In this document: piece after piece, positions 9,739 through 60,989 of the stretch
How the letters are laid out: each line of letters opens with the position of its first letter
Position numbering within the stretch: position 1 is the first letter of the stretch
Source of the DNA: Actinomycetes bacterium
GTDB lineage: Bacteria; Actinomycetota; JAHEXW01
Assembly: GCA_023251915.1 (NCBI GenBank)
Contig: JAHEXW010000004.1
Location: 26,733-90,732 of the forward strand
Direction of reading: 5' to 3'
DNA length: 64,000 nucleotides
Position numbers and translations under genes: made by a program
The notes under the pieces: model-generated
What the model saw: only the letters and a program-made list of their open reading frames with translations
The model's database searches: none
Told to the model about the DNA's origin: nothing

Positions 9739-11024
9739 CAAGGAAGAGTATAGGGAGAATAGGGATTATTAGGAGTATAAGGAAACATGTCATTGCGAGG
9801 GAGCGTCGCGATCGCGGCAAGCTCATCGGGGTAAAGTGCCTCCCGGTATTCATAATCTCTATACTCCTAATACTCCCGCACCAGGCCCTTGCGTGGGGTT
9901 CCGTGACTCATGCCGCAATCTGCCGGGAGGCCGGCGGCAGCGAAGACTTTGTGTTGGGCGGTATCGCACCGGACATGATTGCACTACATTCTGTGACCAC
10001 GGGTGACTCCTCTTTTGACTACACGCATAACTATTTCGGTGAAGCGCGCGAGCCTGTGTTTGGCAAAATAATGGCGCAAGTGTCAGGTCAAGACTTTTCG
10101 CACGGTTGGGTCGCGCACCAGTTAGCCGATAGTGTGGTTCATGGACCGGACGGTTACTCGAATACAAAAACAGTCTTCGAGAACATCCCGGAAAAGTACA
10201 AACCGACACTTAGTCATGGCGCGGTTGAGCTGATTGTCGACGCGATCGTCCTAGACGAGCTCTATCATCGCAGCGTTGACCTGTGGGTGCCGGATAACGC
10301 AGAGCTTATCCATAGGTCCACCGTCCGTTTCTATAACAGCTACTTGTCCACGGACCTAAAGGTTCCGCGTGCCCACATTATTAACTGCCACACGGCTGCT
10401 GATTTGGCGTATCGCTGGGACTTGTGCTTGAACACCAACAAATACCTGGCTGAACTCATGCTGGAAGAGCCTTGGTTCGCGACCGTGCGTCGGCGCTTCG
10501 AGGACTTCAGACCTCTGTTCGCGCGCTCAGTGGCTCTTGTCGGCAGCCGTGCGTCGGTGACACGTCCTCCCCGCAAAGCCCCGGCCTCCGGCTGGGACAG
10601 GTGGGCCGAACTCTTACCGACCGCAGTCGCCCGTGCCGCGGAGGGCGAAGAGGGCGGAGAGGTTGGTGGAACCGGAGAGCCGGCCGGTTACTATCGATTC
10701 CTAGCGCAACTCGGTGAACGAGCGAAAAGAAACGGACACGGCCATATGACCAAGGAAAGCGTCCGGCAAGCTGCCGTCGAACTTGCCAACAGCAAAGAGA
10801 CGTCAGAGGAGGAAAAGGTTTGGTCGGCGGCAATGGCCGGTCTGACCGATAAACGCACGACTGATCTGCGCCAGGTCAGCCGCCTAATCAGGGAGGCGGG
10901 GAGGCGCTCGTCCGGGAACGGCGCCGCAGGCGGCCTAAAGGATGACGTTCTCCCCTATCTTCCTTGCGGCGCGGCTCTCGGTGTTGTGTTGGCCGCGCTT
11001 GTCTGGATGTTCAAGAAACGATGA
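9726..11024 (+). CDS. secreted zinc-dependent phospholipase C / P1-nuclease superfamily protein with sorting-signal-like C-terminus
   Basis: Signal peptide ending ALA; the predicted mature N-terminus WGSVTHAAI carries the N-terminal Trp that serves as a zinc ligand in this superfamily. His/Asp-rich helices follow. The C-terminal LPYLPCG is followed by 16 hydrophobic residues and KKR. The only in-frame start is 9726, so the N-terminal region is encoded through the palindromic repeat. Confidence 0.6.
   Translation: MALLARKSIGRIGIIRSIRKHVIARERRDRGKLIGVKCLPVFIISILLILPHQALAWGSVTHAAICREAGGSEDFVLGGIAPDMIALHSVTTGDSSFDYTHNYFGEAREPVFGKIMAQVSGQDFSHGWVAHQLADSVVHGPDGYSNTKTVFENIPEKYKPTLSHGAVELIVDAIVLDELYHRSVDLWVPDNAELIHRSTVRFYNSYLSTDLKVPRAHIINCHTAADLAYRWDLCLNTNKYLAELMLEEPWFATVRRRFEDFRPLFARSVALVGSRASVTRPPRKAPASGWDRWAELLPTAVARAAEGEEGGEVGGTGEPAGYYRFLAQLGERAKRNGHGHMTKESVRQAAVELANSKETSEEEKVWSAAMAGLTDKRTTDLRQVSRLIREAGRRSSGNGAAGGLKDDVLPYLPCGAALGVVLAALVWMFKKR
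9773..9871 (+). repeat. palindromic element (arms ATTATTAGGAGTATA / TATACTCCTAATACT) enclosing a GTCATTGCGAGG plus GC-hairpin unit
   Basis: Perfect 11-13 bp inverted arms at 9773-9787 and 9857-9871. The core GTCATTGCGAGG is at 9788-9799, followed by GAGCgtcgcgatcgcggcaaGCTC. Confidence 0.6.
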
Positions 11025-11038
11025 AAGGGGGTGATTAT

Positions 11039-11242
11039 ATGGATAACGCGTCCGAGTTGGGTCGGGTAAAACGAGATGACCAGGTTGACGTCGTCATTCG
11101 TAAGGGTGAGTTCATGGGCAAGGCTTACGTTGATATTCGCGAGTACCTAAAGGCTGACTCCTTCGAGGGGTTTACAAAACGGGGCATACGGATTCCGGCA
11201 GATTTGTACGCCGAGCTCGTTGCTCAAATGAACAAGTCATAA
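11039..11242 (+). CDS. PC4/Sub1-like ssDNA-binding small protein (YdbC-like)
   Basis: 67 aa, start at the ATG after AAAGGGGGTGA. KAYVDIREYLKADSFEGFTKRGIRIPADLYAELV resembles the PC4 motif ...DIREY...PTKKGISL.... Confidence 0.5.
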   Translation: MDNASELGRVKRDDQVDVVIRKGEFMGKAYVDIREYLKADSFEGFTKRGIRIPADLYAELVAQMNKS

Positions 11243-11346
11243 ACGCTATGATACAATTATGGCTGGACGCAGGGCTTTTGCCAGAGGACAATATTTGCGC
11301 TTCCTCTGGCAAAACTATTTTCACCGCGCCAGCGAAAGGGGTAAGC

Positions 11347-12630
11347 ATGGCAGACGAGTTCAAGGCTCCCATCGAGCCGGAGCAACAAACGGAGCAGGCA
11401 CCAACCGGCCTGCCGGAACAGCCCGTTCAAGATGAGTTCTCAATAGCCGATTCGCCGCCGACCGCGGCTGACACGGCTGGTAATGAAGAAATCCCTCTGG
11501 TCGACAAGGCGGCGTCCAAAGAAAAGCCGCCTAAGCAACCGAAACCGCCGAAACAACCAAAGCCACCGAAAGAGCCAAAACCACCCCGGCCGCCTAAAAC
11601 GCCGAAAACGGCCAAGGAAAAGGCAAAACAAAAAGCTCTCATGAAGAAGATAAGCATGATTGCCGCCATTGTCTTATTGTTGGCCGCGGCCGGCTTTGGC
11701 GCCTGGTATTATCTCATTCGCAGCGTTCCGGTCAACGTGACCGCTACGTTGGTTCTGCGGGGAACAGTGCGTGACGTTGTGAACGCGACTGGCAAGGTCG
11801 AAGCCAACCAGATGGTCCCCATATACGCGGTCCAAGACGATAGAGTCAGTGAAGTATTAGTAAAAGAAGGCGACTCGGTTATCTCCGGCCAGAACTTGGT
11901 AAAGCTGGATGGCGGGGGATTTGTCACGACGTCGATCGCCGGCAAGGTAACGAATATCGCTGTCCAGGCCGGTGACAAAGTGGTCGGCACTATTCAACCG
12001 CTGACGGCGGTCCCGACAACGCCTTCGACCACGACGCCGTCGACTACCAACCCGACCGCGACGACTCCCGCTACCACGGCGCCAACAACAACGACGCCAC
12101 AAATAACCAAGACGCCCACGTTGTTGATGACGGTCGCTAACATGGATCCGACTTACGTGGTTGCCAACGTTGACGAAACGGACATTTCTAAGATCAAAAT
12201 CGGGCAAAAGACCGAAATGACTCTGGATGCCTATCCGAACAAAATAATCCGAGGTGACGTAACCGAGATCGGCCTGGTGGCTACGGCGACCCAGACGGGA
12301 GGCACCGCTTTTCCAGTCAAGATCCGGGTTACCGAGGCTAAGGACATCGACCTGCGCATCGGCATGAGCGCCGACACTGATATTGTCATCAGAACGCGCG
12401 ACGACGCTCTCCGGGTTCCGGTTACAGCCGTCACCACGGACGGAGGCAAAGATGCCGTATATGTCGTCAAGAATAATTCCGCGGAGAAAACGACCATCAA
12501 GATCGGCTTGTTGAGCGGCGACTATTATGAGGTCTTGGCCGGCATCAACGAGGGTGAAGAGGTCGTCGTCAAAGGTATCGACAAGCTAAAGGGCGTGAGC
12601 AAGGCCGACGTGAAGGTCACGCGGCGGTAA
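11347..12630 (+). CDS. HlyD/MacA-family periplasmic adaptor with Pro/Lys-rich N-terminal region
   Basis: AAAGGGG RBS. N-terminal PKQPKPPK repeats, one TM helix, then a biotin-lipoyl/beta-barrel adaptor layout. It precedes MacB-like ATPase and permease genes. Confidence 0.65.
11527..11598 (+). repeat. tandem 18-bp (6-codon PPKQPK) repeats, about 4 copies
   Basis: ccgcctaagcaaccgaaa / ccgccgaaacaaccaaag / ccaccgaaagagccaaaa / ccaccccggccgcctaaa. Confidence 0.5.
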
Positions 12631-12631
12631 G

Positions 12632-13312
12632 ATGCTCGTTGTCGATGACCTGAGAAAAACCTACAAGCTGGAAGGTGTCGAAGTCGAGGCGCTGCGGGGT
12701 GTTACATTTCGTGTTCACCCCGGTGAGTTTGTGGCCATCATGGGGCCATCGGGCAGCGGCAAGTCGACCCTGATGAACCTGATCGGCTGTCTGGACCGCC
12801 CGACCTCCGGCACAATCGTTCTGGATGGCCAATTCACGTCCGACTTAACCGATAACCAGCTGGCTGGTGTACGCAACCAGAAGATAGGCTTTGTTTTCCA
12901 GAACTTCAACCTCTTAACGCGCGCCAGCGCGGTAAAAAACGTTGAACTCCCGTTGGTTTACGCCGGCATCGGACCGGGCGAGCGGCGTCACCGGGCGGAG
13001 AAAGCCTTAGAGGAAGTCGGTTTGGCCGACAGGATGTGGCACCGCCCTAATCAGCTGTCTGGCGGACAACAACAGCGAGTCGCCATCGCGCGGGCCCTGA
13101 GCGTTGACCCCGCGATTGTTCTAGCTGACGAGCCGACCGGCGCTTTGGATAGCAAGAGCGGCGACGAGATCATGGTCATCCTGAGCGAGCTAAACAAGCA
13201 AGGGAAGACGGTCATTCTAGTCACGCACGAGGAATATATCGCCAACTACACCAACAGGATAATCAGGATGAAGGACGGTCTGATCTTGTCTGATTCGGCG
13301 GTGGCGAAATGA
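12632..13312 (+). CDS. ABC transporter ATP-binding protein, MacB/LolD/FtsE family
   Basis: Walker [10 protein letters not shown], signature [15 protein letters not shown], Walker [12 protein letters not shown]. Confidence 0.85.
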
Positions 13313-14502
13313 GCCTGTTGGAAAGCTTCCGTCTGGCATTCGACGCTTTACGCGCCAACAAGCTGCGGGCCGGTCTAACAATGTTGGGCGTCATCATCGG
13401 TGTTATGGCAGTGATTCTCTTGGTCAGCATGGGCCAGGGCGTTACGGCGGAGATAACAGGCCAGGTCTCGGGCCTGGGTTCGAACCTGTTGTTCGTCATG
13501 CCCGGCCATTTCGATGTCAAAGATACATCAGGAACAGGTGGTATGCCGACCTACAAACTGCGTCCGGCCGATGTCGACATCATTAAACGGCGTTCCAGTC
13601 TGGCGGCTGGGGTCATCGGGATTATCGAAGCTCCGGTATCGATTGGCTTTAAGAATAGAACGACTAAAACGGTAGCCGTATGCACCAACGAAAGTTACCC
13701 CGATGTGATGACAAGGCCGATTGCTACCGGCCGTTTCCTGACTCAATCTCAAATCGCCGGAGCCCGTCATGTGACCGTGCTTGGCAAGACCGTGGTAGAT
13801 AATTTGTTCGGCAGTATCGATCCCATCGGCAAACAGATATCTATCGCCGGCCAGAAATACATCGTCGTCGGCACGATGTCCGAAAAAGGCATGATGATGG
13901 GCCAGGATTTTGACAACGGTGTTTATGTGCCGATCACTGTGGCCAATAACCTCGTCGGCCACGAACGGTTGAGTGAGATAGTCGTTAAGGCTAAGAGTGC
14001 CGACATGATTCCGGAAACCAAAAAAGAGATCGAGAACATCTTGCTCAAGAAGTATTCCAAGGACGATTTCACGGTCTTTAGCCAAGGCGAGACTTTGTCC
14101 ATAATGAATAATATTTTAGGTATCATGACCCTTATGTTGGCAGGCATAGCGAGCATATCCCTGCTGGTCGGCGGTATCGGCATCATGAACATAATGCTTG
14201 TGTCCGTGACCGAGCGCACCCGGGAGATAGGCATTCGCAAGGCAGTCGGCGCAAAAACGACGGATATTATGGTCCAGTTCATCATCGAAGCTGTTATGTT
14301 AAGTGCGCTCGGCGGCACCCTCGGCATTCTTTTAGGCGTCGGTGCGGCTTTGATAATTAATAACTGGCTGCCGGCTCAGATAAGCACCTGGTCGATTGTG
14401 TTAGCGTTTTGTTTCTCAGCTGGCGTCGGCGTCTTCTTCGGCGTTTATCCTGCCTGGAAAGCGGCCCGTCTTGACCCGATAGAGGCCTTGCGGTACGAGT
14501 GA
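13309..14502 (+). CDS. ABC transporter permease, MacB/FtsX family (periplasmic domain plus 4 TM)
   Basis: 397 aa. N-terminal TM, large extracytoplasmic domain, C-terminal FtsX-like TM bundle. ATGA overlap with the ATPase gene. Confidence 0.8.
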
Positions 14503-15176
14503 TGGAACCGGAGAGAATTCTCAAGCGCGACAAGAAATCAAAAAGGTCGTATACGGTTGGCGAAGAGATTGCCAACGCGATAACGCATGGCGTCGGTGTC
14601 GTCTTTTCGATTGTCGCGATGACGCTTTTGATCGTCACCGCTGTTTTGCACGGCGGAGACGGTTGGCGGTTGGCGGCGGCCGTCATTTACGGGTCGTCAC
14701 TGGTCATTGAGTACACGTTTTCGACCCTCTATCATAGTTTTCCCTGGTCAAAGATAAAGCACGTCTTTAAGATTCTGGATCACGCGGGTATCTATTTTCT
14801 TATCGCTGGCAGCTACACACCATTTATGCTGGTTACGCTGCGCGGCACGTCTATCGGCTTTTGGGTGTCCATTGGAATCTGGGCGTTTGCCGTCGCCGGC
14901 ATCTCAACCGAGGCCTTCTGGGTCTACCGGCCGAAATGGCTGGCGGCCGTTGTTTACGTAATCATGGGCTGGATCGCAGTCCTGGCAATCAAACCATTAA
15001 TTGCGCTAGCTCCGCCGCAAGCCGTTTGGTTGTTGATCGCGGGCGGTTTGTGTTACACGGTTGGCGCCGTAACCTATATTCCACGCCGCGTCCCCTATCT
15101 CCACGCCATCTGGCACCTCTTTGTCTTGGCCGGCAGCGTCCTGCACTTCCTTGCCGTCGTACTTTACGTTTTGTAA
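14499..15176 (+). CDS. hemolysin III / PAQR family membrane protein
   Basis: 7 TM; conserved HxxxH/LDHAGIYFLIAGSYTPF motif. Confidence 0.8.
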   Translation: MMEPERILKRDKKSKRSYTVGEEIANAITHGVGVVFSIVAMTLLIVTAVLHGGDGWRLAAAVIYGSSLVIEYTFSTLYHSFPWSKIKHVFKILDHAGIYFLIAGSYTPFMLVTLRGTSIGFWVSIGIWAFAVAGISTEAFWVYRPKWLAAVVYVIMGWIAVLAIKPLIALAPPQAVWLLIAGGLCYTVGAVTYIPRRVPYLHAIWHLFVLAGSVLHFLAVVLYVL

Positions 15177-15227
15177 AGGCTACGTAATAATTTAGTAACG
15201 TGACCGCATCGCGACGGGGGGTACAAC

Positions 15228-16163
15228 GTGTCTCTGCTGGAAGTAATCAATCTCACCAAGACATTCGATGCCAACACAGCCGTTGATGACGTAAGTTTCA
15301 CGGTTGAGGCGGGAGAGATATTTGGCCTGCTCGGCCCGAACGGCGCCGGTAAGTCGACTTTGATCGGGATGGTGTCGACCCTTCTCAAACCGACAAGGGG
15401 CGATATAGTCATCGACGGCCATAGTGTCGTCAAAGAGCCGATGGCAGTAAAGCGTTTGATTGGCGTTGTGCCGCAGGAGATTGCCCTATATCCAACCCTA
15501 ACCGCCCGAGAGAATCTTGATTTTTGGGGAAAAATGTACGGTTTGTCGCCTTCGGAGATTAAAGAGCGAGCTACCGACGTTTTGGAGATTGTCGGGCTGA
15601 CTGACCGTGCCGCTGAGAGAATCGACACCTACTCCGGCGGCATGAAACGCCGGATAAATATTGCCGCCGGTCTGCTGCATAGCCCCAAGGTGCTGTTTAT
15701 GGACGAACCGACCGTGGGCATCGATCCGCAAAGCCGGAACCACATTCTGGAAACGGTCAAACATCTCAACGAAGCCGGCCTGACCGTGATTTACACGAGC
15801 CACTACATGGAGGAAGTAGAATTCCTCTGCGATCGAATTGCGATTGTCGACAAAGGCAAGGTCATTGCCAGCGGTACCCAGAATGAACTGAGACTATTGG
15901 TTGGCAACAAAGACGTCATTCGAATCAAGGCGTTTGATATTCCGGAAGATGTCGCGGCTGATTTGGCGACGATCAAGGATGTTGATGGGGTGACCATAAA
16001 GGAGGGCGAGTTAGATATCCTCAGCCCGCGCGGGCGCGAGGTGCTGGCGTCCGTTATTAAGGCCTTAAATGACCGCCAGATAAAAATCGCGTCGGTTGAA
16101 GTCCAAGAGCCCGACCTGGAGAGTGTGTTTCTCCATTTAACGGGCCGAAGTCTTAGGGACTAG
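15228..16163 (+). CDS. ABC-2 type exporter ATP-binding protein
   Basis: GTG start. GPNGAGKST, YSGGMKRRINIAAGL, LFMDEPTVGID. Confidence 0.85.
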   Translation: MSLLEVINLTKTFDANTAVDDVSFTVEAGEIFGLLGPNGAGKSTLIGMVSTLLKPTRGDIVIDGHSVVKEPMAVKRLIGVVPQEIALYPTLTARENLDFWGKMYGLSPSEIKERATDVLEIVGLTDRAAERIDTYSGGMKRRINIAAGLLHSPKVLFMDEPTVGIDPQSRNHILETVKHLNEAGLTVIYTSHYMEEVEFLCDRIAIVDKGKVIASGTQNELRLLVGNKDVIRIKAFDIPEDVAADLATIKDVDGVTIKEGELDILSPRGREVLASVIKALNDRQIKIASVEVQEPDLESVFLHLTGRSLRD

Positions 16164-16169
16164 AAAGAT

Positions 16170-17378
16170 ATGCGACCTCTGGCAATCGCTCTTAGAGATA
16201 CTAAGATTATCGTACGTGATCGGCGGGCCCTCCTTATCCTGTTGGCAATGCCTCTAACAATCATCGCGATACTCGGCTTGGCACTGGGCAGTCTGTGGAG
16301 CGGAGAAGGTGCAATCAACAAGTTCGACGTCGCCGTCATAGACCACGACCACGGCAGTGCGTCAAAGGTATTCATCAACGACATTCTAAAGTCGCGGGAT
16401 ATGAAAAAAATCCTTTCCGTTACCGGTCCGACCGAAAAGCACGCGCGGGCATCCGTGGCCGACGGTGATCTGGCTGCCGCCATCATTATCCCGGCTGGTT
16501 TCTCCGCCGCGATCAATAAAGGCGAATCGGCGAAAATTGAGGTCATCGGCGATCCGGGACAACAGGTACGGGCGGGAGTCGTTCGGAGCGTCACCGAGTC
16601 TTTCGCGACTCACGCCAGCTCCGTCTTGATCAGCGTCAAAACATCAGTCGAAAGCCTTGTTGGGCAGGGTGCCGTCCCGCCGTCGCAGATTGTTGGTTTG
16701 TCTCAGACTCTGGCTGCTCAAGCCCAAACCGAATTGCATAAACCCCAGATCACGGTGGTGAAGAAGTCGACTGCTTCGGAAAAATCGGTGTCAGCCCTCC
16801 AGTATTACTCCGCGGGTATGGGAGTGATGTTCATCTTATTCGGTTCAATGTTTGGCGCGTTCTCCCTCTTGGATGAACGGCGTCAGATCACTCTGGCCAG
16901 AATGATGGCGGCGCCCGTCTCTCGTCTGGCCATCCTAAGCGGCAAGCTCGGCGGGGTATTCGTGATCGGCTCTCTGCAATTCGCTGTGATTGTCGCGTCA
17001 ACGCGCATACTATTCGGGGTTAACTGGGGCCCGTCGGTCGTGGGCGTGGTCGCGTTGGCGGCGGCAACGGTATTCGCGGCGACCGGAATGGCCATATTCA
17101 TCGCGTCGATTGCGAAAACGCAGGGGACGGCCGCGGGCCTATCACAGGGTTTGATTCAAGGGATGGCGGCTTTGGGCGGCTCGATGATACCGCTGTCGGT
17201 GATGCCTCCGGCGATGCAGAATTTCAGCAAGCTCACCATCAACTACTGGGCCATATCGGGTTTCAATGATCTTATGCTCGGCAAAGGCGCCGGCGCAATC
17301 ACAATTAATTGTCTGATTCTCATAGGCATCGCCATATTATTTATGGCTCTTGGCGTGGCGAGGTTCAGATATGAATAA
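16170..17378 (+). CDS. ABC-2 family permease
   Basis: N-terminal TM, extracytoplasmic loop, 5 C-terminal TM; the ABC-2 layout. Confidence 0.75.
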   Translation: MRPLAIALRDTKIIVRDRRALLILLAMPLTIIAILGLALGSLWSGEGAINKFDVAVIDHDHGSASKVFINDILKSRDMKKILSVTGPTEKHARASVADGDLAAAIIIPAGFSAAINKGESAKIEVIGDPGQQVRAGVVRSVTESFATHASSVLISVKTSVESLVGQGAVPPSQIVGLSQTLAAQAQTELHKPQITVVKKSTASEKSVSALQYYSAGMGVMFILFGSMFGAFSLLDERRQITLARMMAAPVSRLAILSGKLGGVFVIGSLQFAVIVASTRILFGVNWGPSVVGVVALAAATVFAATGMAIFIASIAKTQGTAAGLSQGLIQGMAALGGSMIPLSVMPPAMQNFSKLTINYWAISGFNDLMLGKGAGAITINCLILIGIAILFMALGVARFRYE

Positions 17379-18573: not shown

Positions 18574-18626
18574 GGTCCGAATCACTTCTTAACAAAGCCT
18601 GCTCGGAAGCGTGTCATAATCTTGTT

Positions 18627-19631: not shown

Positions 19632-19637
19632 TGACGT

Positions 19638-20441
19638 CTACCTGAGGCCGGTAACCACCAGCGCGACGATCGTCCCTGCCAACAGTAGCCTATAGACGGC
19701 GAAAACCGCGAAACTGCTTTTCCGCAGATACTTGAGCAGGTATTTGATGCTCAGGTAGCCAACGATTGCGCTGACGCCGATTCCGATAAAGAAAGCCGCG
19801 TCGACTGTTCCGTGGACCAGCTTGCGTGCCTCGTATAGCGCCGCGCCAACTGTTATCGGCGCTGACAACAGGAACGAGAAACGCGCGGCGTCCTCGCGCT
19901 TGAAGTTTCTAAACAAGCTTGTGGTCATAGTTATCCCCGAACGCGACACGCCGGGAATGATCGCGATGGCCTGCGCCGTACCGACGAGGACCGCGTCCCA
20001 CACGCCTATGTGGTTTATGTCTTTGGTCTTCTTGCTCAGGCGGTCGGCAACATATAGCACAACGCCCATGACCGCTAGGGTGGCCGCAATCAGCAGCGGC
20101 GCCCGAAACGCCGCTTCCGCCTTCTTCTCCAACAGGGCGCCGAGCAGGCCGCCCGGAATCGACCCGATCAGCATGTACCAAGCGAATCGCTCATCAAAGG
20201 TAGTCGCTTTTCTCTTCGCCAGACTGGCAAACCAAGCCTTAACGATTCGCCACAGGTCATGCCAAAAAAATATAATGACGGCCAGCGCCGTACCGAAATG
20301 AAGAGCCGCGTCGAAGGCCAGGCCAGGATCAGGAAACTTGAGTAGCCAGGGCGTCAGGATAAGATGGGCCGAGGAACTGATAGGCAGAAATTCGCTCAAA
20401 CCCTGAACGATTCCCAAAATTATGGCGTGCCAAATGGTCAA
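19638..20441 (-). CDS. uppP: undecaprenyl-diphosphate phosphatase
   Basis: Signature GIVQGLSEFLPISSSAHLIL. Start trimmed to the TTG 5 nt after GGGGAG, giving MTIWHAIILGIVQGL. Confidence 0.85.
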   Translation of the reverse strand: MTIWHAIILGIVQGLSEFLPISSSAHLILTPWLLKFPDPGLAFDAALHFGTALAVIIFFWHDLWRIVKAWFASLAKRKATTFDERFAWYMLIGSIPGGLLGALLEKKAEAAFRAPLLIAATLAVMGVVLYVADRLSKKTKDINHIGVWDAVLVGTAQAIAIIPGVSRSGITMTTSLFRNFKREDAARFSFLLSAPITVGAALYEARKLVHGTVDAAFFIGIGVSAIVGYLSIKYLLKYLRKSSFAVFAVYRLLLAGTIVALVVTGLR

Positions 20442-21119: not shown

Positions 21120-21183
21120 AAAGTAAGGAGGAATAGCCATCAAAAAGTTTGAAAAAGAGGCCAGCCCCTTCGCCAAAGCCGGG

Positions 21184-25371: not shown

Positions 25372-25653
25372 CTTCCCTCCCTAGATTCCGCTTTGTCCAG
25401 ATGTCTTAACTCAAGACACACTGCTTGAGAACAGATAGGCGTTATATGCGATAGCGAGTGATGATATTAAAGTAATATTCATGCAAGGATAAGTCAAGGC
25501 ATAATAGTAAATATTATAAAGTCTCTTTATTAGCAGCATCATTGTTAATTATCTAAGTTATGTACATTTTTGAGACTTACCCCTTAACTGGACCTCACTC
25601 TCCAGTGAGAGGGAAATAAGGACAGCGGGGAATAATCGAAACTGACGGTCCCT

Positions 25654-26095
25654 GGTGGGCCCGTTCTCGGGCTTAGTCATCTGCATGTAGCGATCTACCA
25701 CGCACGAGATTAGCTGGCAAAGTGGGCCTCGTGTCAGTTCCTGCGATTTGGCTTGGCGGGCCGAATGCCAGGATGACCGTTCGCATGTTTCTGCCGCCCC
25801 AGGATGAACCGTTTACTGAAAGGTTTCCGCGACGGCTGGCCTGCCGGCCGTAGCGACCGAGAAGACGGAGGCCGTCAGGCTGGAGTTTGTCCGCGAAGGC
25901 TGGTGGGCCCGTTCTCGGACTTCGCCTCGCCTGTCAAAATGGGAGGTTGCTTCGTCACTTCATTCCTCGCAATGACCGAATGACGCGACCCTCGGTTGCT
26001 CACGACTCGAATATCGCTCCTTCGGACCGAGTTCGAGTCAAGCAAGGCAACATTTCTAGGAAATATCGGAAGATATTCCTCAGGGATGGTGGGCC
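25654..26095 (-). repeat. array of three degenerate copies of the tRNA-Ile 3' end (TGGTGGGCCC...), putative att-site remnants
   Basis: Plus-strand TGGTGGGCCCG at 25654 and 25901, and TGGTGGGCC at 26087. The first two share 22 nt. The copy at 26087 and the true tRNA end at 26286 are each followed by a hairpin (GGAAATATCggaaGATATTCC and AGAAATACC...GGTATTTCT). Confidence 0.5.
25941..25976 (-). repeat. GTCATTGCGAGG-family repeat copy (minus orientation)
   Basis: Plus strand gggaggttgcttcgtcacttcattcctcgcaatgac equals the rc of GTCATTGCGAGGaatgaaGTGACGAAGCAACCTCCC. Confidence 0.5.
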
Positions 26096-26143
26096 TCGGG
26101 ACTTTCAGGCACGATTCTTCCTGGATTTGAAAGCATCGTGAGG

Positions 26144-26185
26144 GCTTGCCGCGTCGGTCGCCTTGGGCGACCTCCTCGCAATGAC
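26144..26185 (-). repeat. GTCATTGCGAGG-family repeat copy with GGTCGCC-caa-GGCGACC hairpin (minus orientation)
   Basis: rc reads GTCATTGCGAGGaGGTCGCCcaaGGCGACCgaCGCGGCAAGC. It shares CGCGGCAAGC with the copy at 9788. Confidence 0.5.
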
Positions 26186-26285
26186 GCACTATTGCGCCCC
26201 CTGGCGCAAACCGTTCAAACAGACTCTCGAAACGCAAAATCCCTTAGAAATACCCACTGTGAAAGGTTGTGGTATTTCTAAGGGA

Positions 26286-26362
26286 TGGTGGGCCCGGACC
26301 GACTCGAACGGTCGACCTCACCCTTATCAGGGGTGCGCTCTAGCCAACTGAGCTACGGGCCC
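26286..26362 (-). tRNA. tRNA-Ile (anticodon GAT), CCA encoded
   Basis: rc is GGGCCCGTAGCTCAGTTGGCTAGAGCGCACCCCTGATAAGGGTGAGGTCGACCGTTCGAGTCGGTCCGGGCCCACCA. It forms a cloverleaf, with anticodon loop CT-GAT-AA and T-loop GTTCGAGTC. Confidence 0.9.
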
Positions 26363-50582: not shown

Positions 50583-50620
50583 AAATCCTCCCTTGTGTCA
50601 CGAGTAGTATATACGTGGAG

Positions 50621-53322: not shown

Positions 53323-54025
53323 TCAAGATCAGCGTAATGTTATCTTCGCCGCCGGCATCCAGAGCCGCTTGCACGAGATTATCGGCGGCATCGTCTAAAT
53401 TAGCGGCATTGTTGATAATGTCCCGAATCACGTCCGGCTCAAGCTTGGCTGACAGGCCGTCAGAACAGAGCAGAATGATGTCGCCCGGCTTACCAGGCCA
53501 GCGGGAAACGTCGGCGGTCACAGTCGGGTATGTACCGAGCGCCCTGGTTATCACGTGCTTGAGCGGGTGAATCCGGGCCAACTCTTCGTCAATCTCGCCG
53601 CGGGCAATCATTTCTTGTACCAAGGTGTGGTCAACGGTCCATTGCGTAAGGTGGCCGTCGCGCAGCAGATAGGCCCGGCTGTCGCCCACCTGAGCCAGAA
53701 ACAGCTCGTCGCCGTCGATATAAGCGGCCGTAAGCGTTGTTCCCATGCCGGCATAGGCTCTTTTGCGCGCGGCTGCGGCGTGAACAGCGTCGTTCGCAGC
53801 TCCTACCGCGGCAACCAATGCGTCCGCGACGGCTTCACCTGGCGTTTCTTCAGGGGGCGGACCGAAAGCGGCGGCAAAAGTTTCCAGAGCCAAGGCGCTG
53901 GCGATTTCCCCGGCGTTGTGTCCGCCCATCCCGTCCGCGACGGCGAACAAACGGCCGTCCGCCAACCAAGAGTCCTCGTTTATTTCGCGCAGTTTCCCAA
54001 TATCAGAACGGGTCACGTATTTCAT
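53294..54025 (-). CDS. pstP: PP2C-family Ser/Thr phosphatase
   Basis: ADGMGGH..., DGDELFLAQVGDSRAYL, LCSDGL. Confidence 0.85.
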   Translation of the reverse strand: MKYVTRSDIGKLREINEDSWLADGRLFAVADGMGGHNAGEIASALALETFAAAFGPPPEETPGEAVADALVAAVGAANDAVHAAAARKRAYAGMGTTLTAAYIDGDELFLAQVGDSRAYLLRDGHLTQWTVDHTLVQEMIARGEIDEELARIHPLKHVITRALGTYPTVTADVSRWPGKPGDIILLCSDGLSAKLEPDVIRDIINNAANLDDAADNLVQAALDAGGEDNITLILIEPREPAGD

Positions 54026-54504
54026 TACATCTTCACCTGGAAAATCGTGTCCCCGATCTTGATCTTCAACCCGTTCTTTAGCCGCACCGGTTCGGTCACC
54101 CGGTCGTGCCCGATGAAAGTTCCATTAGTGCTGCCCAGATCCATCAACCACCATTCGTCCAACTTCTTTATGATGCGGCTGTGTTGATGGCTGACCAAAG
54201 GGTCGCGCAAAACGATTTCCGTCTCGGTCGAGCGCCCGATAGTCACGATGTCAGTCAGTGGATAAATGCGCCCCGGATTGACGAAATCGCTTTTGACCAC
54301 TTCTAACGCCGCGTTTTCCGCCGGACGCGCCCGGCGCTTTTGTTCCATCGCTTCGCGCGCCTCACTATACGGAACGGGACGCTCATAGATGTCGATATAG
54401 ATGGCCCTGACTACACGGCCCAGAAATACATACAGGAGGATAACAAACGCCAGGTTGATTAGAGTCACGTAGCCGGGCGCCACGCTAAAACCGCCGGAAG
54501 ACAA
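54025..54504 (-). CDS. fhaB: FHA-domain protein FhaB/FipA-like (N-terminal TM)
   Basis: C-terminal FHA (GR..E..I.L.D..VS..HA.I...). Confidence 0.8.
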   Translation of the reverse strand: MSSGGFSVAPGYVTLINLAFVILLYVFLGRVVRAIYIDIYERPVPYSEAREAMEQKRRARPAENAALEVVKSDFVNPGRIYPLTDIVTIGRSTETEIVLRDPLVSHQHSRIIKKLDEWWLMDLGSTNGTFIGHDRVTEPVRLKNGLKIKIGDTIFQVKM

Positions 54505-55165
54505 AAACGACTTCGCCGGCGCCGATCTTGTCGCCGTCTTTCAATTCGATCTCGGCGACGCGTTTTCCGTTGACGAATGTCCCGTTGGTGGCCCCAAGGT
54601 CGGAGAGGAAGAAGCGCCCGTCTCTCGCCGTGATTTCGGCGTGATGCCGGGAGAGACTGGGATCGGGCACAGGAACGTCGTTGGATGCCAGCCGTCCGAT
54701 GGTAGCGCGGCCCGGACCAAGCAAGAAAGTCTCGCCCTCTTCTTGACCGAGCAACATCGTCAACGACGCCAGCGCTTCGAGACCGTCTTGTTTGGCGGGC
54801 GTCACCAGGCGCGCGTCCACGTCGACCAAGCCCGCCGGTTGGTTCGCGTCTTCCGCTAAGATTATGACGGGCACGCCCAGCATTACATAGCCCTTTTCTT
54901 TCCGGCGCTTGTCCAAAAAGGTGGTCAGCTCGTTGATTAAGCGATCAGTGAAGTCGATCATAGCCGCCAGATCGGCAGGATTTAGCCGGGCAGTGTATTC
55001 GTTAGGTATGTAGATTTTCGAGACTCCGACCGTTCGGCCGGACTCCATTGCCCGGTCCAACTTCTTGGCAATTTCTATGGGCTGGACTCCGGACTTGAAA
55101 CCCTTGGCAAAAGCGCCCTCAACGGTCCGCTCTAGCTTGGCTTCCAGGTCTTTAAGTAGGCTCAC
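54485..55165 (-). CDS. fhaA: FhaA-like protein (DUF3662 plus FHA)
   Basis: N-terminal MSLLKDLEAKLERTVEGAF...; C-terminal FHA. Confidence 0.8.
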   Translation of the reverse strand: MSLLKDLEAKLERTVEGAFAKGFKSGVQPIEIAKKLDRAMESGRTVGVSKIYIPNEYTARLNPADLAAMIDFTDRLINELTTFLDKRRKEKGYVMLGVPVIILAEDANQPAGLVDVDARLVTPAKQDGLEALASLTMLLGQEEGETFLLGPGRATIGRLASNDVPVPDPSLSRHHAEITARDGRFFLSDLGATNGTFVNGKRVAEIELKDGDKIGAGEVVFVFRRF

Positions 55166-56952
55166 TCTTCGTCCTCGTCATCGTCGTCTTCGATTGCTGT
55201 CAGGCCGAAAGAACGGCGCGGCAACGCCGCCAGCAGGCCTACAGGTAGTATAAGTGAAGCCAGCCAGCTTTTCAGGAGCACATCTATATAAGCGGGGCTC
55301 CAGTGGACGGCTGTCATGATAGCCAGTTCGCCGACCAAAAGAAGGACAGCTCCCGCGGCTAAAGCCTTTGCGTCGCCCGACAGCGAACGCCGTTTCGAGA
55401 AGAAACTGACCAAGGCGGCCACAGCGGCCCATAAAAATGCCTGGGTAAGCAGGGCGGGAGCTCGCCCAAAGGGTCGGATGAATGTGGCTATGGCTGTCGC
55501 CGGGTTCAACGAGCCGGCAAGCTCATGTTTCAGCCCGAAGGTATTCGCGAGAGCGACAAAGTGAATTACGTTTGAGTTAAATAGATCAAATGTCACCACA
55601 GCCAGGCCGCCTAAGAATCCCAAGCCGGCGGCAACCAAGGGACTCCAAAACAACCCCGCGAAGAGAGGATAACTCAATCCGATGCCGGCGATGGAAGACA
55701 GAGGCGCCAGGAATGCGAATACCGTCTTGGCCGGTTTGGCCAGCCAAAACGACAGCATCCAGAGAAATATGATTATCATGACGATGACCGAGACAACAAG
55801 CGAATAGTCGGCGAGAGGCAGAAATAAGATTGCCAGGCCGGCGGCCAATCCGACGCGCGGAAACAACAGCGCCAGAGCCGCGTATGTGAACGGCAGAACC
55901 GCCTGTATCTCGCCGGCGTAGAATCCTGTTTTTGAGAGGAAGAAAGACAGGAATATCGTTCCGAAGATCGCGTTGGCGACACGTTCGACCGCGGATCGAT
56001 GTTTGGCTAGCCAACCGGCGACGGCTTCCTTGGCGTCGGAAAGAGCCCCGATAAATGGTCCCAAGGGTCCGTCATATTCGGTTACTTCGACCGGCAAGCC
56101 GGATGCGGCTAGCTTGTACAGCGGCTTTATGACTTTTCGGCTGGGCGCTTTGGCGTCTCTCATGCTCTCCAGGTAATGACGCAGAATCGTAACATCATCC
56201 AGCCGCTGGGTTCGCGTCTTCTCCAGCGTTCGCAAAATCAAGCTTTCCAGGTCGCGTGAGATGTGGGTGTTCAGTTCTGATGGCGGTTGGGGGTCTAGGT
56301 TGGTGATCTTAAAGACGATGCCCGCCGGGGTGGCGGAGCCGAACGGAGAGACGCCGGTCAGCATCTCGTACAAAACCACGCCTAAAGAAAAAACGTCGGT
56401 CCGGGCATCAACGCGCCCGCCTTTGGCCTGTTCCGGAGACATATATGCGAATGTTCCCAACACATCGCCGGCCGCCGTCATGGTCGACGAGGCCAGACGG
56501 GCGATGCCAAAGTCTGTTACTTTGACACTGCCGTCTTTGGTGATCATTATGTTTTCCGGCTTAATGTCACGGTGAACGATGTCCATCGCGTGCGCCGCTT
56601 CCAGCGCGTCGGCTATCTGGATCGCGATGTCCAAGCCTTCCTCGATTGCCAGCGGTGACTTCGCTGCCAGGACCTTAGATAGTGGTACGCCGTCGATATA
56701 TTCCATGATCAGGTAATAGTAGCGGTCGTCTTTTTCCAAATCGAATACCGTGACGACGTTGGGATGATTGAGCTGTCCGGCAGCCCTCGCCTCGGTTAAC
56801 GTGCGGTCTGAGGTCTTGGAAGAAAGGTCGATACGCTTGACCGCTACGGTACGGTTCATCAGAGTGTCTTCCGCCCGAAAAACCTCGCCGTAACCGCCTC
56901 GTCCGATGCTTTCTATGATGCGGTATCTGTCCAGGACCATTGCTTCTGTCAT
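55162..56952 (-). CDS. Ser/Thr protein kinase with C-terminal polytopic membrane domain (about 10 TM)
   Basis: Kinase subdomains I-XI in the first 270 aa. The last 300 aa are highly hydrophobic. Confidence 0.8.
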   Translation of the reverse strand: MTEAMVLDRYRIIESIGRGGYGEVFRAEDTLMNRTVAVKRIDLSSKTSDRTLTEARAAGQLNHPNVVTVFDLEKDDRYYYLIMEYIDGVPLSKVLAAKSPLAIEEGLDIAIQIADALEAAHAMDIVHRDIKPENIMITKDGSVKVTDFGIARLASSTMTAAGDVLGTFAYMSPEQAKGGRVDARTDVFSLGVVLYEMLTGVSPFGSATPAGIVFKITNLDPQPPSELNTHISRDLESLILRTLEKTRTQRLDDVTILRHYLESMRDAKAPSRKVIKPLYKLAASGLPVEVTEYDGPLGPFIGALSDAKEAVAGWLAKHRSAVERVANAIFGTIFLSFFLSKTGFYAGEIQAVLPFTYAALALLFPRVGLAAGLAILFLPLADYSLVVSVIVMIIIFLWMLSFWLAKPAKTVFAFLAPLSSIAGIGLSYPLFAGLFWSPLVAAGLGFLGGLAVVTFDLFNSNVIHFVALANTFGLKHELAGSLNPATAIATFIRPFGRAPALLTQAFLWAAVAALVSFFSKRRSLSGDAKALAAGAVLLLVGELAIMTAVHWSPAYIDVLLKSWLASLILPVGLLAALPRRSFGLTAIEDDDDEDEE

Positions 56953-57009
56953 AGGTCAAGGGTATCAGCCGGTATGTTATAATACAAATCGTTCCAAACG
57001 CGAACGAAC

Positions 57010-57096
57010 GCCCCCGTGGCGGAATTGGTAGACGCGCTACGTTCAGGGCGTAGTAGCCGTAGGGCTGTGCTGGTTCAAATCCAGTCGGGGGCACCA
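57010..57096 (+). tRNA. tRNA-Leu (anticodon CAG), long variable arm, CCA encoded
   Basis: GCCCCCGTGGCGGAATTGGTAGACGCG CTACG-TTCAGGG-CGTAG ... GGTTCAAATCC ... CGGGGGCACCA. Confidence 0.9.
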
Positions 57097-57116
57097 TCCA
57101 ACTGACAAGGAGTCTC

Positions 57117-58166
57117 ATGGCGTATAGCAGGGGAACCCTGTCATACCGACAAAAACGTAAGCCCATCTTCAATCCCCGGGTGATCATTGTTGTCTTGGTC
57201 ATCGTCTTCTTATTGCTGTGTTTGATCGGCCGCGGCACCTTCAGCCGCATCGGTTGCAGCAACGATACCAGCGCAATCCAGAACTACGTCAATCAGGTCA
57301 AGAAGATCGCTGAACGTACCAACAAGGTCGGGACCGATTTTGCCGATTTGCGCAACAATATCAAGTCTCTGGCCAGGAAGGACCTGCAGACGAAGCTGAA
57401 CAAAATGGCGAAGGACAGCGCCACGATAACCGGCGACGCCAAGAAGATAGAGGTTCCGACAGAGATGGCGGACGCGAACGAATACTTGCTGGTGGCGTTG
57501 GAGCTGCGGACCACCGCCTTGGAGAGCTACCAACCGGCCATCTTCAACGCCTTGGGCGATACCGACTTGGAAGTCTCGGCTAAACAGGTCAGCTTGTCTC
57601 TGCGGGACATTGCCTTTAGCGATCGGGCTTTCGGGCTATTTAAAGACGCGGCTCAAAAGGTATTGAAGTCCAAAGACATCACATTCGTGTCAGCGCCGGC
57701 GTCGGTGTTTCTGACGGTCGACGGGGAATACGAGGCGGCTAATGTCTTGCAGTTCCTCCAAGCGATTAAAACTTCAGCGCCCGACCTGACTGAAACGCAC
57801 GGCATCGCCATCTCGGAAGTTGTCCTCGATCCGGCCGCGACGGCCGATAATAACGGTATCGGCTCTCTGCCCAGCACCACTACGGTCAGTGTGTCGGTGA
57901 CGATTGAAAACCAGGGTAATCAGCTTGAGGTAAACGTTCCGGTTGTCGCGACGCTTAAGTCGGAAACCCAACCGAAGCCACAACTGAAGAAGGCTACCAT
58001 CGCGTCTTTAGCGCCGGGTGAGAAAAAGACAATCAAGATAACAGGACTGACGCCGACAAAAGGCGATATCGTTAACATGCTGACGATTCAAGCGGGACCG
58101 GTTCCGAAAGAGAAGTTCTTGGACAATAACATGAGTGAGATTAAATTTACCGTTGCCGTGAAGTAG
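57117..58166 (+). CDS. hypothetical membrane-anchored protein with C-terminal CARDB/Ig-like domain
   Basis: AAGGAG RBS. One TM. Helical region, then a beta-rich C-terminus (TVSVSVTIENQGNQ...). Confidence 0.5.
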   Translation: MAYSRGTLSYRQKRKPIFNPRVIIVVLVIVFLLLCLIGRGTFSRIGCSNDTSAIQNYVNQVKKIAERTNKVGTDFADLRNNIKSLARKDLQTKLNKMAKDSATITGDAKKIEVPTEMADANEYLLVALELRTTALESYQPAIFNALGDTDLEVSAKQVSLSLRDIAFSDRAFGLFKDAAQKVLKSKDITFVSAPASVFLTVDGEYEAANVLQFLQAIKTSAPDLTETHGIAISEVVLDPAATADNNGIGSLPSTTTVSVSVTIENQGNQLEVNVPVVATLKSETQPKPQLKKATIASLAPGEKKTIKITGLTPTKGDIVNMLTIQAGPVPKEKFLDNNMSEIKFTVAVK

Positions 58167-58168
58167 AC

Positions 58169-59293
58169 TTAGTCGCGTATCGCGGCGCCGTAGACCTCTT
58201 TGAAAGACCGACCGTGTTGGCGAGCCGCCGCCGCGACATCCTCGAACTCGGGTCGAACCGACACTAAACCCCCGCCAAACCAGCCTTTCTTAACCCTTAG
58301 GTCGCCGAATTCCGTGGTCACCGTAATCGTCTCCCGATGCAGTGCCAACCTTGACACGTTAGAAATCCGTAGTCCCAGGGTGCCTGTTTCGCGGAAGAAC
58401 GCGTCGATGATCGCCGCGTCGCGGCCAACCTCACACAGACAGCTCAGCACAAACGCGGGCCGCCCCTTTTTCATGATTACGGGCGTGTACCAAACGTCCA
58501 ATGCACCCGCTCCAAACAGGCGATCCATAGCGTAGGCGAGCGCTTCCGGGGTGAGGTCGTCGATATTTGATTCCATCATCAGCACCGTCTCGTCCGCCTG
58601 GCCTGGCGCCTCCGTCGGCGCGTCTCCCAGCATCAGCCGCAGAACGTTAGGCTGGTCCGTCTCAGCGTCGCCGGCGCCGTATCCAACCTGCTGTAAGGTC
58701 ATGGGGGGTAGGGCGGCGGGCTGTTCCGCTAGCGTTTTGGCGATCGCCACTCCCGTTGGTGTGACATTCTCCAAACCCAAATCATAAAGGGCGACGGCCA
58801 TTCCTTTTAGCATGTGAGCAGTCGCCGGAGCCGCCCGGCTGGCGGTAATCGTGGAAACATAGAGCTTGTCGATATTCAGCAGGTCAAGGCAGACAGCCGT
58901 TCCGGTCACGTCGATTATCGCGTCGACCGCCCCGACTTCGTGAAAATGAACGGTCGCGGGCACCTGGCCGTGGGCCGCGCCCTCGGCCGTCGCCAGCGTC
59001 TCAAACACGTGTGCCGCCTGTTGCTTGGCTCGGGCCGACAGACGGCTGCCGGCTATGATCTTCAGGATATCCAGCAACTTTCGCTCGACCGGCTCGGACT
59101 TGTCGATAACGTCAACCTTCGTCGCGGCCAGTCCGGATTTCTTTACCCCGCGGACGTTTATTTCCCAGCCCGCCAGATTAAGTTTGGCCAATTCGTTCCG
59201 GAGTTGTTGCGGGTCGACGCCCGCGTCCACGAACGCGCCCAAGAGCATGTCGCCGCTGATACCACCCATACAATCCAAGTAAGCAATCTTCAT
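58169..59293 (-). CDS. larC: LarC-family nickel-pincer cofactor biosynthesis protein (nickel insertion, DUF111)
   Basis: MKIAYLDCMGGISGDMLLGAFVDAGV, the N-terminal LarC signature. Confidence 0.75.
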   Translation of the reverse strand: MKIAYLDCMGGISGDMLLGAFVDAGVDPQQLRNELAKLNLAGWEINVRGVKKSGLAATKVDVIDKSEPVERKLLDILKIIAGSRLSARAKQQAAHVFETLATAEGAAHGQVPATVHFHEVGAVDAIIDVTGTAVCLDLLNIDKLYVSTITASRAAPATAHMLKGMAVALYDLGLENVTPTGVAIAKTLAEQPAALPPMTLQQVGYGAGDAETDQPNVLRLMLGDAPTEAPGQADETVLMMESNIDDLTPEALAYAMDRLFGAGALDVWYTPVIMKKGRPAFVLSCLCEVGRDAAIIDAFFRETGTLGLRISNVSRLALHRETITVTTEFGDLRVKKGWFGGGLVSVRPEFEDVAAAARQHGRSFKEVYGAAIRD

Positions 59294-59304
59294 AGACGCG
59301 CTAC

Positions 59305-59340
59305 GTCATTGCTAGGAGCGCAGTGACGAAGCAACCTCCC
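59305..59340 (+). repeat. GTCATTGCGAGG-family repeat copy (variant GTCATTGCTAGG) between larC and larB
   Basis: GTCATTGCTAGGAgcgcaGTGACGAAGCAACCTCCC. Confidence 0.5.
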
Positions 59341-59341
59341 C

Positions 59342-60118
59342 TCATCCTATAGTCTGCTTGTTTATGGTTGCCGCGATGTACCCGGCGCCGAACCCGTTGT
59401 CGATGTTGACGACACTGACGCCGGGAGCGCAGCTGGTTAGCATACCTAAAAGCGCTGTGACACCGCCGAAACTGGCTCCGTAGCCGACGCTCGTTGGAAC
59501 CGCGATAACCGGGCATGACGCCACACCGCCGACCAGACTGGGTAAGGCGCCCTCCATGCCGGCGACCGCTACTATGGCCCGCGCTTCGTTGATGATATCG
59601 AGGTTGGCAAAAAGCCGGTGTGCACCGGCCACACCTGCGTCGTATACGCGAGTCACCTTCGCGCCCATCGTCTCCGCTGTAAAGGCGGCTTCCTCGGCTA
59701 TCGGCATATCGGTTGTGCCGGCCGAAATGACAACAACATTGCCGACCGCGAGCACCTGATCCCGCCCGGGTATGACAACTAAACGGGCGACCGCGTGATA
59801 GATTGCTGTCGGAGCGCCCGCGAGCGCTGCCGCGAACGCGGCTGCGTCAGCTTTAGTGAGCATGACCGGCTGGCCGTGACGCGCCAGTTCAACTACGATT
59901 TTGGTAATCTGCGCGGGGGTTTTGCCGGGACAGTAGACAACTTCGGAAAAGCCGCAGCGCAGGGAACGGTGGTTGTCTATCTTGGCGTCACCCAGGTCCT
60001 CGTAAGGCATGCCCTTGAGGCGCTCGACCGCGGCTTCCACTGACACGCTGCCAGCCTGAATGTCTCTAAGTAGTTTTTCTATCTGTGTCTTATCCATTTT
60101 CACGCTCAACGCCATCAA
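59342..60118 (-). CDS. larB: LarB (PurE-like P2CMN synthase for the NPN cofactor)
   Basis: PurE-like fold, VVVISAGTTDMP ... AVAGMEGALPS... The start may be M8 at 60097. Confidence 0.75.
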   Translation of the reverse strand: MMALSVKMDKTQIEKLLRDIQAGSVSVEAAVERLKGMPYEDLGDAKIDNHRSLRCGFSEVVYCPGKTPAQITKIVVELARHGQPVMLTKADAAAFAAALAGAPTAIYHAVARLVVIPGRDQVLAVGNVVVISAGTTDMPIAEEAAFTAETMGAKVTRVYDAGVAGAHRLFANLDIINEARAIVAVAGMEGALPSLVGGVASCPVIAVPTSVGYGASFGGVTALLGMLTSCAPGVSVVNIDNGFGAGYIAATINKQTIG

Positions 60119-60989
60119 AACGCTCTACGTCATTGCGAGGAGCCTGGTTTCTAGGCGACGAAGCAACCTCCCGAGAAGCAACCTCACTATTCATGCTCCC
60201 CATCTTATAACCAGTTGAGGCGATTTCGATGCGGGCAAAATCCAAGTCGCATAGAAAGGAGTTGACTGCCGACCAGTCCGCGTGCAAGGCCGGCACTTGC
60301 TCCGGCGCCACCTCGATGCGGGCTTCGATATCATCGAGCAGACGGAGGCGAACATTACGAAAGCCGCGCTCCCGCAGAAATGTCTCGCCCCGGTTGATTC
60401 TCATGAGGCGGCTGGACGTAACTCGGCGGCCGAAAGCGATACGGCTGGCCAGACACGGCGCAGCTTCCCGGTCCCAGTTGGGTAACCCGAGGGCTCGAGC
60501 CAACTCTCGCACGGCCTGTTTGTCTAGTCCGGCTTCCAGCAAGGGATGGACTATGCCCATCTCCCGAGCGGCCTCCAGCCCCGGGCGGGTGTCGGACAGG
60601 TCGTCGACGTTGACTCCTTCGAGAATGGCGACAACATTGGATCCTGTTGCCACCTTCATCATGTCCGAGTACATTTGCCGCCGGCAATGATAGCAGCGGT
60701 CCGTATTATTGGCCGCGGCGGCCTCAATTTCCAGGAAACTTGCGCAGATTACCCGATGGCTGACGTCGAGCTGTTCGGCCAGACGGACAGCCTGATCAAT
60801 ATCAGAATCAGGGGTTACTTCGGTCTGCCAAGTGACCGCGGTAAGGTCGCCCGCCAAAGCGTCGCGCGCGGCTGCCAGCAAAAGCGCGCTGTCGGTTCCT
60901 CCGGAAAAGGCGACGATGGCGCCGGGATGGGGTTCTATGCGGTGTTTAAGCAGTTCATAACGTTTATCAACCAACATAAGCATCATCAT
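60090..60989 (-). CDS. larE: LarE (PP-loop ATP pyrophosphatase, sacrificial sulfur transferase)
   Basis: PP-loop VAFSGGTDSALL. The C-terminal about 30 aa (…ASREVASSPRNQAPRND…) are encoded through the repeat element and are probably non-native. Confidence 0.75.
   Translation of the reverse strand: MMMLMLVDKRYELLKHRIEPHPGAIVAFSGGTDSALLLAAARDALAGDLTAVTWQTEVTPDSDIDQAVRLAEQLDVSHRVICASFLEIEAAAANNTDRCYHCRRQMYSDMMKVATGSNVVAILEGVNVDDLSDTRPGLEAAREMGIVHPLLEAGLDKQAVRELARALGLPNWDREAAPCLASRIAFGRRVTSSRLMRINRGETFLRERGFRNVRLRLLDDIEARIEVAPEQVPALHADWSAVNSFLCDLDFARIEIASTGYKMGSMNSEVASREVASSPRNQAPRNDVERFDGVERENG
60129..60172 (+). repeat. GTCATTGCGAGG-family repeat copy at the larB/larE junction
   Basis: GTCATTGCGAGGAgcctggtttctaggcGACGAAGCAACCTCCC, followed by a partial GAGAAGCAACCTC duplication. 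Confidence 0.5.

Follow-up and report, generated by a model that had tools for sequence, protein, structure and literature searches.

The 64-kb stretch of DNA analyzed here, hereafter the window, belongs to contig JAHEXW010000004.1 of an Actinomycetes bacterium, and carries a short palindromic repeat in five dispersed copies, two of which lie at gene junctions of the lar operon. What kind of element is this repeat, and with which type of enzyme does it belong? A first-pass annotation, made from the letters of the stretch alone, suggested a lineage-specific element of the repetitive extragenic palindrome (REP) or bacterial interspersed mosaic element (BIME) type, perhaps accompanied by a REP-associated tyrosine transposase (RAYT) gene. 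Our analyses led to a different answer: the five copies are very probably Ssn-related motifs (SRMs), the NTS-like hairpin repeats that accompany the small, single-domain GIY-YIG nucleases named Ssn.

A hairpin repeat family linked to a GIY-YIG nuclease gene

The annotated core, GTCATTGC[G/T]AGG, was recovered in five copies. With at most one mismatch, GTCATTGCKAGG has exactly five matches in the whole window, against a mean chance expectation of 0.71, and five or more were reached in none of 100 dinucleotide-preserving shuffles. The matches, designated copies A to E, lie at 9789-9800 (+), 25965-25976 (-), 26174-26185 (-), 59305-59316 (+), which is the GCTAGG variant, and 60129-60140 (+). Four of these sites are those annotated previously, while the first copy begins at 9789 rather than at 9788.

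The family extends far beyond this genome. Its general form, GTCATTGCGAG-N(4-34)-CGAAGCAA, matched at least 120 IMG/VR contigs, with 184 copies among the matches listed. The variant found in the window, GTCATTGCGAGG-N(4-34)-GACGAAGCAACC, gave at least 120 matches in the GTDB species genomes, and those listed fall into about 12 phyla, their hosts being Alpha-, Beta- and Gammaproteobacteria, Acidobacteriota, Bacteroidota, Chloroflexota, Planctomycetota, Cyanobacteria, Gemmatimonadota, Actinomycetota, KSB1, FCPU426 and others. Because the two patterns matched viral contigs and the genomes of many phyla, the family is not lineage-specific, contrary to the earlier proposal. The repeat is neither a lineage marker nor part of a RAYT system; the window offers a local sample of a hairpin family that spans phyla and whose enzyme partner is of a known type. 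For the Ssn field, it also matters that phage-like contigs are rich in these repeats. In four phage-like IMG/VR contigs (L015, L038, L003 and L070), a copy is present between most of the structural genes, with a single orientation per contig; this orientation is sense to the genes in some contigs and antisense in others, and a ribosome-binding site is often just a few nucleotides away from a copy. When 888 copies were searched for empty sites, a single, imprecise case emerged, and a full-text literature search with DNA or RNA strings of the element returned unrelated primers only.

The gene that accompanies the repeat encodes a GIY-YIG protein. At locus L225, an open reading frame (ORF) of 106 aa with a GIY-YIG domain is embedded in a nest of element copies, and 80 metagenome loci were chosen solely by homology to this protein. 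In these loci, the element density was 2.15/kb within 150 nt of the GIY-YIG gene and 0.95/kb at 150-500 nt, falling to 0.11/kb at 500-1500 nt and 0.07/kb beyond 1500 nt. This corresponds to an approximately 30-fold enrichment of the element at distances of up to 150 nt from the gene, and at 50 of the 80 loci a copy lies this close. The favored layout places a '+' copy upstream and a '-' copy downstream, often bracketing the gene in inverted orientation. The associated protein of ~100 aa consists of a single PF01541 domain.

A system with this composition was described by Chenal et al. (Nat Commun 2025; PMC11893778). The Neisseria NTS, CGTCATTCCCGCGMAVGCGGGAATCYRG, is a subset of the dRS3 repeats, and its relatives in other phyla were named SRMs. 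They are found on either side of ssnA, whose 94-aa single-domain GIY-YIG product belongs to the CDD family cd10448, and the NTS-ssnA-NTS arrangement is insertion-sequence-like (PMC11893778). SsnA binds single strands in their folded form, cutting a few nucleotides upstream, and is inactive on duplex DNA, RNA and the reverse strand. In Neisseria meningitidis, the three bases (GTC) located 5' of the palindrome weigh most for cutting by SsnA and the C just 3' of it for binding, and the Ssn system reduces transformation by NTS-bearing DNA (PMC11893778).

The assignment of the present family to the SRMs is supported by the agreement of both its frame, Y-GTC-AT...AT-C-Y, and its gene association with this description. 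In all five window copies, an unpaired GTC immediately precedes the palindrome on its 5' side. A C immediately follows the palindrome, the ends reading GCAAC-C in copies B, D and E and GCAAG-C in copies A and C. The palindrome itself is a hairpin-forming inverted repeat, 20-50 nt long, and the covariation of the outer and inner stems indicates that it stays paired. Finally, copies flank a ~100-aa single-domain GIY-YIG gene at the level of the family, not in the window.

A REP or BIME-type element mobilized by a RAYT would likewise be a short, imperfect palindrome, mostly intergenic and multicopy, and sometimes arranged in doublets or tandem arrays, and the resemblance to REPs in general concept is discussed in the Neisseria work (PMC11893778). 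However, the gene enriched beside the present element encodes a GIY-YIG nuclease, and the conserved 5' foot is Y-GTC-A, not the GTAG or GTGG of REPs. REP families are genus-specific, while the present family keeps the same ~22 conserved bases across phyla. Moreover, a jackhmmer search seeded with the Escherichia coli RayT found no RAYT gene in the window, and only five matches in ~4.3 Mb of element-bearing loci. The RAYT explanation is already largely refuted, and we regard it as very improbable. What survives of the REP/BIME-like description is the concept of dispersed intergenic hairpins tied to a nuclease gene: the repeat is REP-like by analogy only, and is a structural variant of the SRMs described in 2025 that the published pattern missed. 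Two of the 80 GIY-YIG loci, L507 and L522, also contain RayT/IS200-like ORFs, at most a few kb away from the ssn-like gene.

Hairpin anatomy and strand specificity

The hairpins of the family are built on one plan, which all five window copies fit: Y-GTC, a 5-bp stem ATTGC, a GA loop opposite GAA, a G-C pair, a variable inner stem-loop, GCAAY and then C, with a second GA/GA loop often following the G-C pair. Among 398 distinct copies, conservation extends from Y(-1)-GTC to GCAA-Y-C-Y and the outer flanks are random; C or T precedes GTC in 94% of these copies, and a C stands 3' of the stem in 97%. The commonest forms, of 24 nt and 30 nt, have the tip GC-GNA-GC, and GCGNAGC is known as an extra-stable DNA mini-hairpin (PMC13037366).

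Both stems covary. On the outer stem, the subfamilies among the matches listed comprise ATTGC/GCAAT (225 copies), ATCCT/AGGAT (195 copies) and ATTCT/AGAAT (176 copies), and the arms ATTCC, ATCCC, ATGCT and ATTTC were obtained as by-catch. Every arm type retains GTC...GAG...CGA(A)...C, and different outer-stem subfamilies co-occur on the same contigs. The inner stem was measured on gapless alignments of equal-length copies, in which both sides had changed in 52 cells compared to 16 ± 3.4 after shuffling, a count of 52 being reached by none of 500 shuffles. Two-sided changes were found at six of the seven pairs, and 81.7% of the cells were paired, as compared to 18-50% with slid partners; a second alignment of equal-length copies repeated this pattern. 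Copies at homologous sites in related contigs are near-identical despite a flank divergence of ~25%, and some of them show compensatory swaps.

The ATTGC and GCAAT arms are inverted repeats and the presence of the element varies between relatives, two features that would also suit a miniature inverted-repeat transposable element (MITE) of an ordinary insertion sequence, or the double-stranded DNA site of a regulator. Either origin appears very improbable. The distance between the arms, which ranges from 3 to 45 nt across the family, is unfit for the site of a dimeric regulator, and the element, at 24-50 nt, is far shorter than MITEs. Furthermore, no recurrent target-site duplication and no recurrent transposase were found among its neighbors.

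Another explanation is a structured, cis-acting RNA that serves mRNA stability, processing or intergenic translation, with the conserved loops as a protein-binding site. Many copies lie close to a stop codon or a ribosome-binding site, at a distance of a few nucleotides, and nearly fill the spacers of co-transcribed genes, and the covarying stems and the uniform orientation within single phage-like contigs would be consistent with such a role. Nevertheless, across co-directional gene pairs, the copies are evenly oriented (68 sense and 73 antisense), with no bias relative to the genes, and the purine G.A loops form on one strand only, the GTCATT strand. No Rfam family matched the element in the window or in canonical viral loci, at either gathering or permissive thresholds. 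The minimal loop, GC-GNA-GC, is a stable hairpin of the DNA type rather than the RNA type, and the N. meningitidis SsnA does not bind RNA. We therefore consider an RNA element unlikely, while a passive side effect of the repeat on mRNA is possible. Taken together, the lack of gene-orientation bias, the strand-limited purine loops, the absence of an Rfam match and the uniform orientation per contig point to a strand-specific property at the level of DNA, rather than of the transcript. Hammerhead and k-turn readings of GAG...CGAA were dropped, as the two strands on either side of the inner stem are paired to one another, which leaves no three-way junction, and the CUGAUGA core and the 3-nt bulge are absent.

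Returning to the SRMs, a mechanism can be proposed by modeling on the N. meningitidis SsnA (PMC11893778). The GTCATT... strand, once it becomes single-stranded, would fold into a hairpin with the outer stem ATTGC/GCAAY. Inside this stem would lie a purine internal loop, GA opposite GAA, often joined by a second one, GA/GA, and, innermost, a stem-loop of any sequence, which in the smallest copies would be the DNA mini-hairpin GC-GNA-GC. GTC would remain unpaired at the 5' foot, with a C directly 3' of the stem, and an Ssn enzyme would bind the folded strand and cut it a few nucleotides upstream. Copies that stand alone, like the five of the window, may be non-autonomous descendants of an SRM-ssn-SRM unit, which would have spread into intergenic spaces and, once, in frame into larE. 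By this analogy, the window copies would be, or would formerly have been, Ssn substrates whose spread depended on an Ssn enzyme.

Several observations weigh against the assignment of the window copies to the SRMs. The published SRM string, HGTCWYN(0-2)YYVSBRHN(0-5)WNVSBRGN(0-2)RNCYNB, matches none of the five, and it misses the canonical ATTGC, ATTCT and ATCCT forms, although the NTS itself matches; this string is a search aid derived from 29 genomes, not a biochemical definition. The membership of the associated GIY-YIG protein in cd10448 is putative, with a weak sub-threshold match in NCBIfam and none in the PDB. No GIY-YIG or ssn-like ORF is present in the 64-kb window, or in the related loci L451 and L452. 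Clustering of the neighbors at loci selected by the element gave phage structural proteins only and no GIY-YIG cluster, and thus most copies are far from any ssn gene. The window copies also depart from the consensus: the stem ends in A.C or A.G where the consensus pair is A-T, which leaves 4 of 5 bp and a mismatch at the outermost position, GAA is replaced by GCG in copies A and C, and GAG is replaced by TAG in copy D. The folding of each copy, which the first-pass annotation had put forward as a check, was no better than that of shuffled sequences for three of the five when DNA energies were used on both strands, under nearest-neighbor rules that treat tandem G.A pairs and GNA loops poorly. 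The window copies may be decaying orphans, slightly off consensus and with no ssn gene within 64 kb.

The window copies and the lar operon

The two subtypes distinguished by the first-pass annotation are both visible on reading the sequence, but they share a single architecture and differ in their inner hairpins and in the divergence of the right arm. In copies A and C, a GC-rich palindromic hairpin precedes the terminal GCGGCAAGC. Copies B, D and E share the right end GACGAAGCAACCTCCC ascribed to the second subtype, with three matches, at 25941-25956 (-), 59325-59340 (+) and 60157-60172 (+), against 0.09 expected; within it, copy E has GCGACGAAGC, while copies B and D have GTGACGAAGC.

Copy A (9789..9822, +) reads GTCATTGCGAGG-GAGCGTCGCGATCGC-GGCAAGC and probably lies between an M23 peptidase gene (8569-9738) and the next gene. 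Its left arm is canonical and its right arm is diverged, with GCG-GCAAG-C as compared to GAA-GCAAT-C. Copy C (26144..26185, -), located ~100 nt downstream of tRNA-Ile, reads GTCATTGCGAG-G-GA-GGTCGCC-CAA-GGCGACC-GA-C-GCG-GCAAG-C, with an inner stem of 7 bp, and its right arm is diverged in the same manner; the GCG-GCAAG-C arm was also found in Planctomycetota doublets. Copy B (25941..25976, -), GTCATTGCGAGG-AATGAAGT-GACGAAGCAACC(TCCC), contains the inner mini-hairpin AT-GAA-GT. Copy D (59305..59340, +), GTCATTGCTAGG-AGCGCAGT-GACGAAGCAACC(TCCC), is antisense to the lar genes. The tips of copies B and D are 2 bp long and contain a G.T pair. In copy E (60129-60172, +), the right end is partially duplicated over the next 13 nt (60173-60185), and the copy and this duplicate together span 60129..60185.

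A partial duplicate of the 5' end, GTCATTCG, is also found directly upstream of copy B (25977-25986). Such end-fragment duplicates, represented after copy E by GAGAAGCAACCTC, adjoin full copies at L150, L153, L006 and L164 as well, which suggests slippage or repeated insertion at existing copies. Two further local structures surround the copies. Downstream of tRNA-Ile, its 3' end (GGCCCACCA and the following bases) recurs three times (26082-26095, 25896-25909 and ~25652-25665; region 25650-26362, -), at a spacing of ~190-250 nt, and copies B and C lie inside these modules of ~200 nt, an arrangement suggestive of serial att-type duplications or of a module duplicated in tandem. Copy A is flanked by an 18-nt inverted repeat (9762-9779 and 9860-9877) that is 94% complementary, within a region (9746-9877) that also includes three GAGTATAGGGA-like direct repeats at 9746-9783; the palindromic element around copy A is a second element, unrelated to the hairpin repeat.

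The lar genes are all encoded on the minus strand: larE (60090..60989), of the PP-loop ATPase family, larB (59342..60097), which is AIR carboxylase-like and whose product is 100% identical to protein P0001, and larC (58169..59293), encoding the nickel insertion protein. The annotated positions of copies D and E, at the larC/larB and larB/larE junctions, are correct. Copy D takes up nearly all of the 48-nt spacer between the larB stop codon (59342-59344) and the larC start (59293). Copy E falls within larE, at the 3' end of its reading frame, and had been considered to provide a non-native C-terminal tail. In the related locus L452, larE ends with GSMNSGRNEIEHGNG*, larB and larC overlap (ATGA), and the element is absent at both lar junctions, while the LarE of the window ends with GSMNS-[EVASREVASSPRNQAPRND]-VERFDGVERENG*. 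This comparison reveals that copy E and its 13-nt partial duplicate form a 57-nt in-frame insertion, which adds the 19 residues EVASREVASSPRNQAPRND and leaves intact both the native terminus (..ENG*) and the stretch in which larE overlaps the start of larB. larE is thus the carrier of a tolerated 19-residue insertion, and the hairpin repeat accounts for spurious annotated peptide tails, such as ..APRND.. and ..EVAS... At present, the effect of the window copies is probably limited to the addition of a hairpin to the DNA and mRNA of the lar operon.

The nearest relatives of LarB are 73-80% identical, and one of them is labelled Actinomycetota. L451 (73% identical) shares the serS-pheA-DUF4446-larEBC synteny and the FHA/PP2C/RodA/PBP/PknB cluster, and no element copies were found in L451 and L452 together. 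In L451, the larE/larB junction of 180 nt (9822-10000) and the larB/larC junction of 145 nt (10814-10958) contain no SRM and are filled by another repeat, in which CATCTCT/ATAATCTCT is abundant. The larE/larB and larB/larC junctions seem prone to collecting small elements. Elsewhere in the window, a cobalamin riboswitch (Rfam RF00174, 35.7 bits) was detected at 4656-4790 (+), upstream of the ORF at 4668-5966.

Relation to known systems

Since the published string misses the GA-loop forms, the purine internal loops and the free inner hairpin mark a branch outside the published pattern. Near GIY-YIG genes of the L225 type, this string finds two sites, both adjoining the gene, as compared to 100 sites of the GA-loop type. 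The published pattern thus overlooks a very common structural variant, and the censuses of the repeats and of the enzyme/site pairs are probably too low. We tentatively suggest that the GA-loop branch, with the arms ATTGC, ATTCT, ATCCT and others, could be a large, uncounted arm of the Ssn/SRM system, maybe with its own GIY-YIG clade; its abundance in phage-like contigs would then hint at a role at a single-stranded DNA stage in phage or host, beyond transformation in Neisseria.

The logic of the family is shared with the REP/REPIN repeats and their RAYTs (IS200/IS605-like Y1 enzymes): in both cases, intergenic hairpins are read as single-stranded DNA with an unpaired foot, the nuclease gene is flanked by copies, and orphans are numerous. 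The two systems differ in the fold of the enzyme (HUH/Y1 in contrast to GIY-YIG), in the foot (GTAG in contrast to GTC) and in their range, which is genus-specific for the REPs and cross-phylum for the present family. At its tip, the hairpin resembles the mini-hairpin DNA d(GCGNAGC) of Hirao and colleagues (reviewed in PMC13037366), as the 24-nt and 30-nt forms have the same GC-GNA-GC with tandem G.A pairs below it. That mini-hairpin is a structural motif rather than a genetic element, and here it serves as an interchangeable tip of a larger conserved hairpin.

Within the SRMs, the present family differs from the NTS in its stem: the NTS stem is continuous (ATTCCCGCG/CGCGGGAAT), while ATTGC/GCAAY is broken by GA/GAA loops, often with GA/GA, and encloses a free inner hairpin. 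Unlike the SRMs described so far, many copies of the family reside in phage-like contigs, and the window, whose host appears to be an Actinomycetota-like metagenome-assembled genome, has no ssn gene. On the larger scale, the family and the SRM/NTS repeats have the same frame, with (C/T)-GTC, a stem that begins with AT and ends with AT, and then C-Y. Both consist of multicopy hairpins of 20-50 nt, mostly intergenic and distributed over many phyla, which bracket a ~100-aa single-domain GIY-YIG gene.

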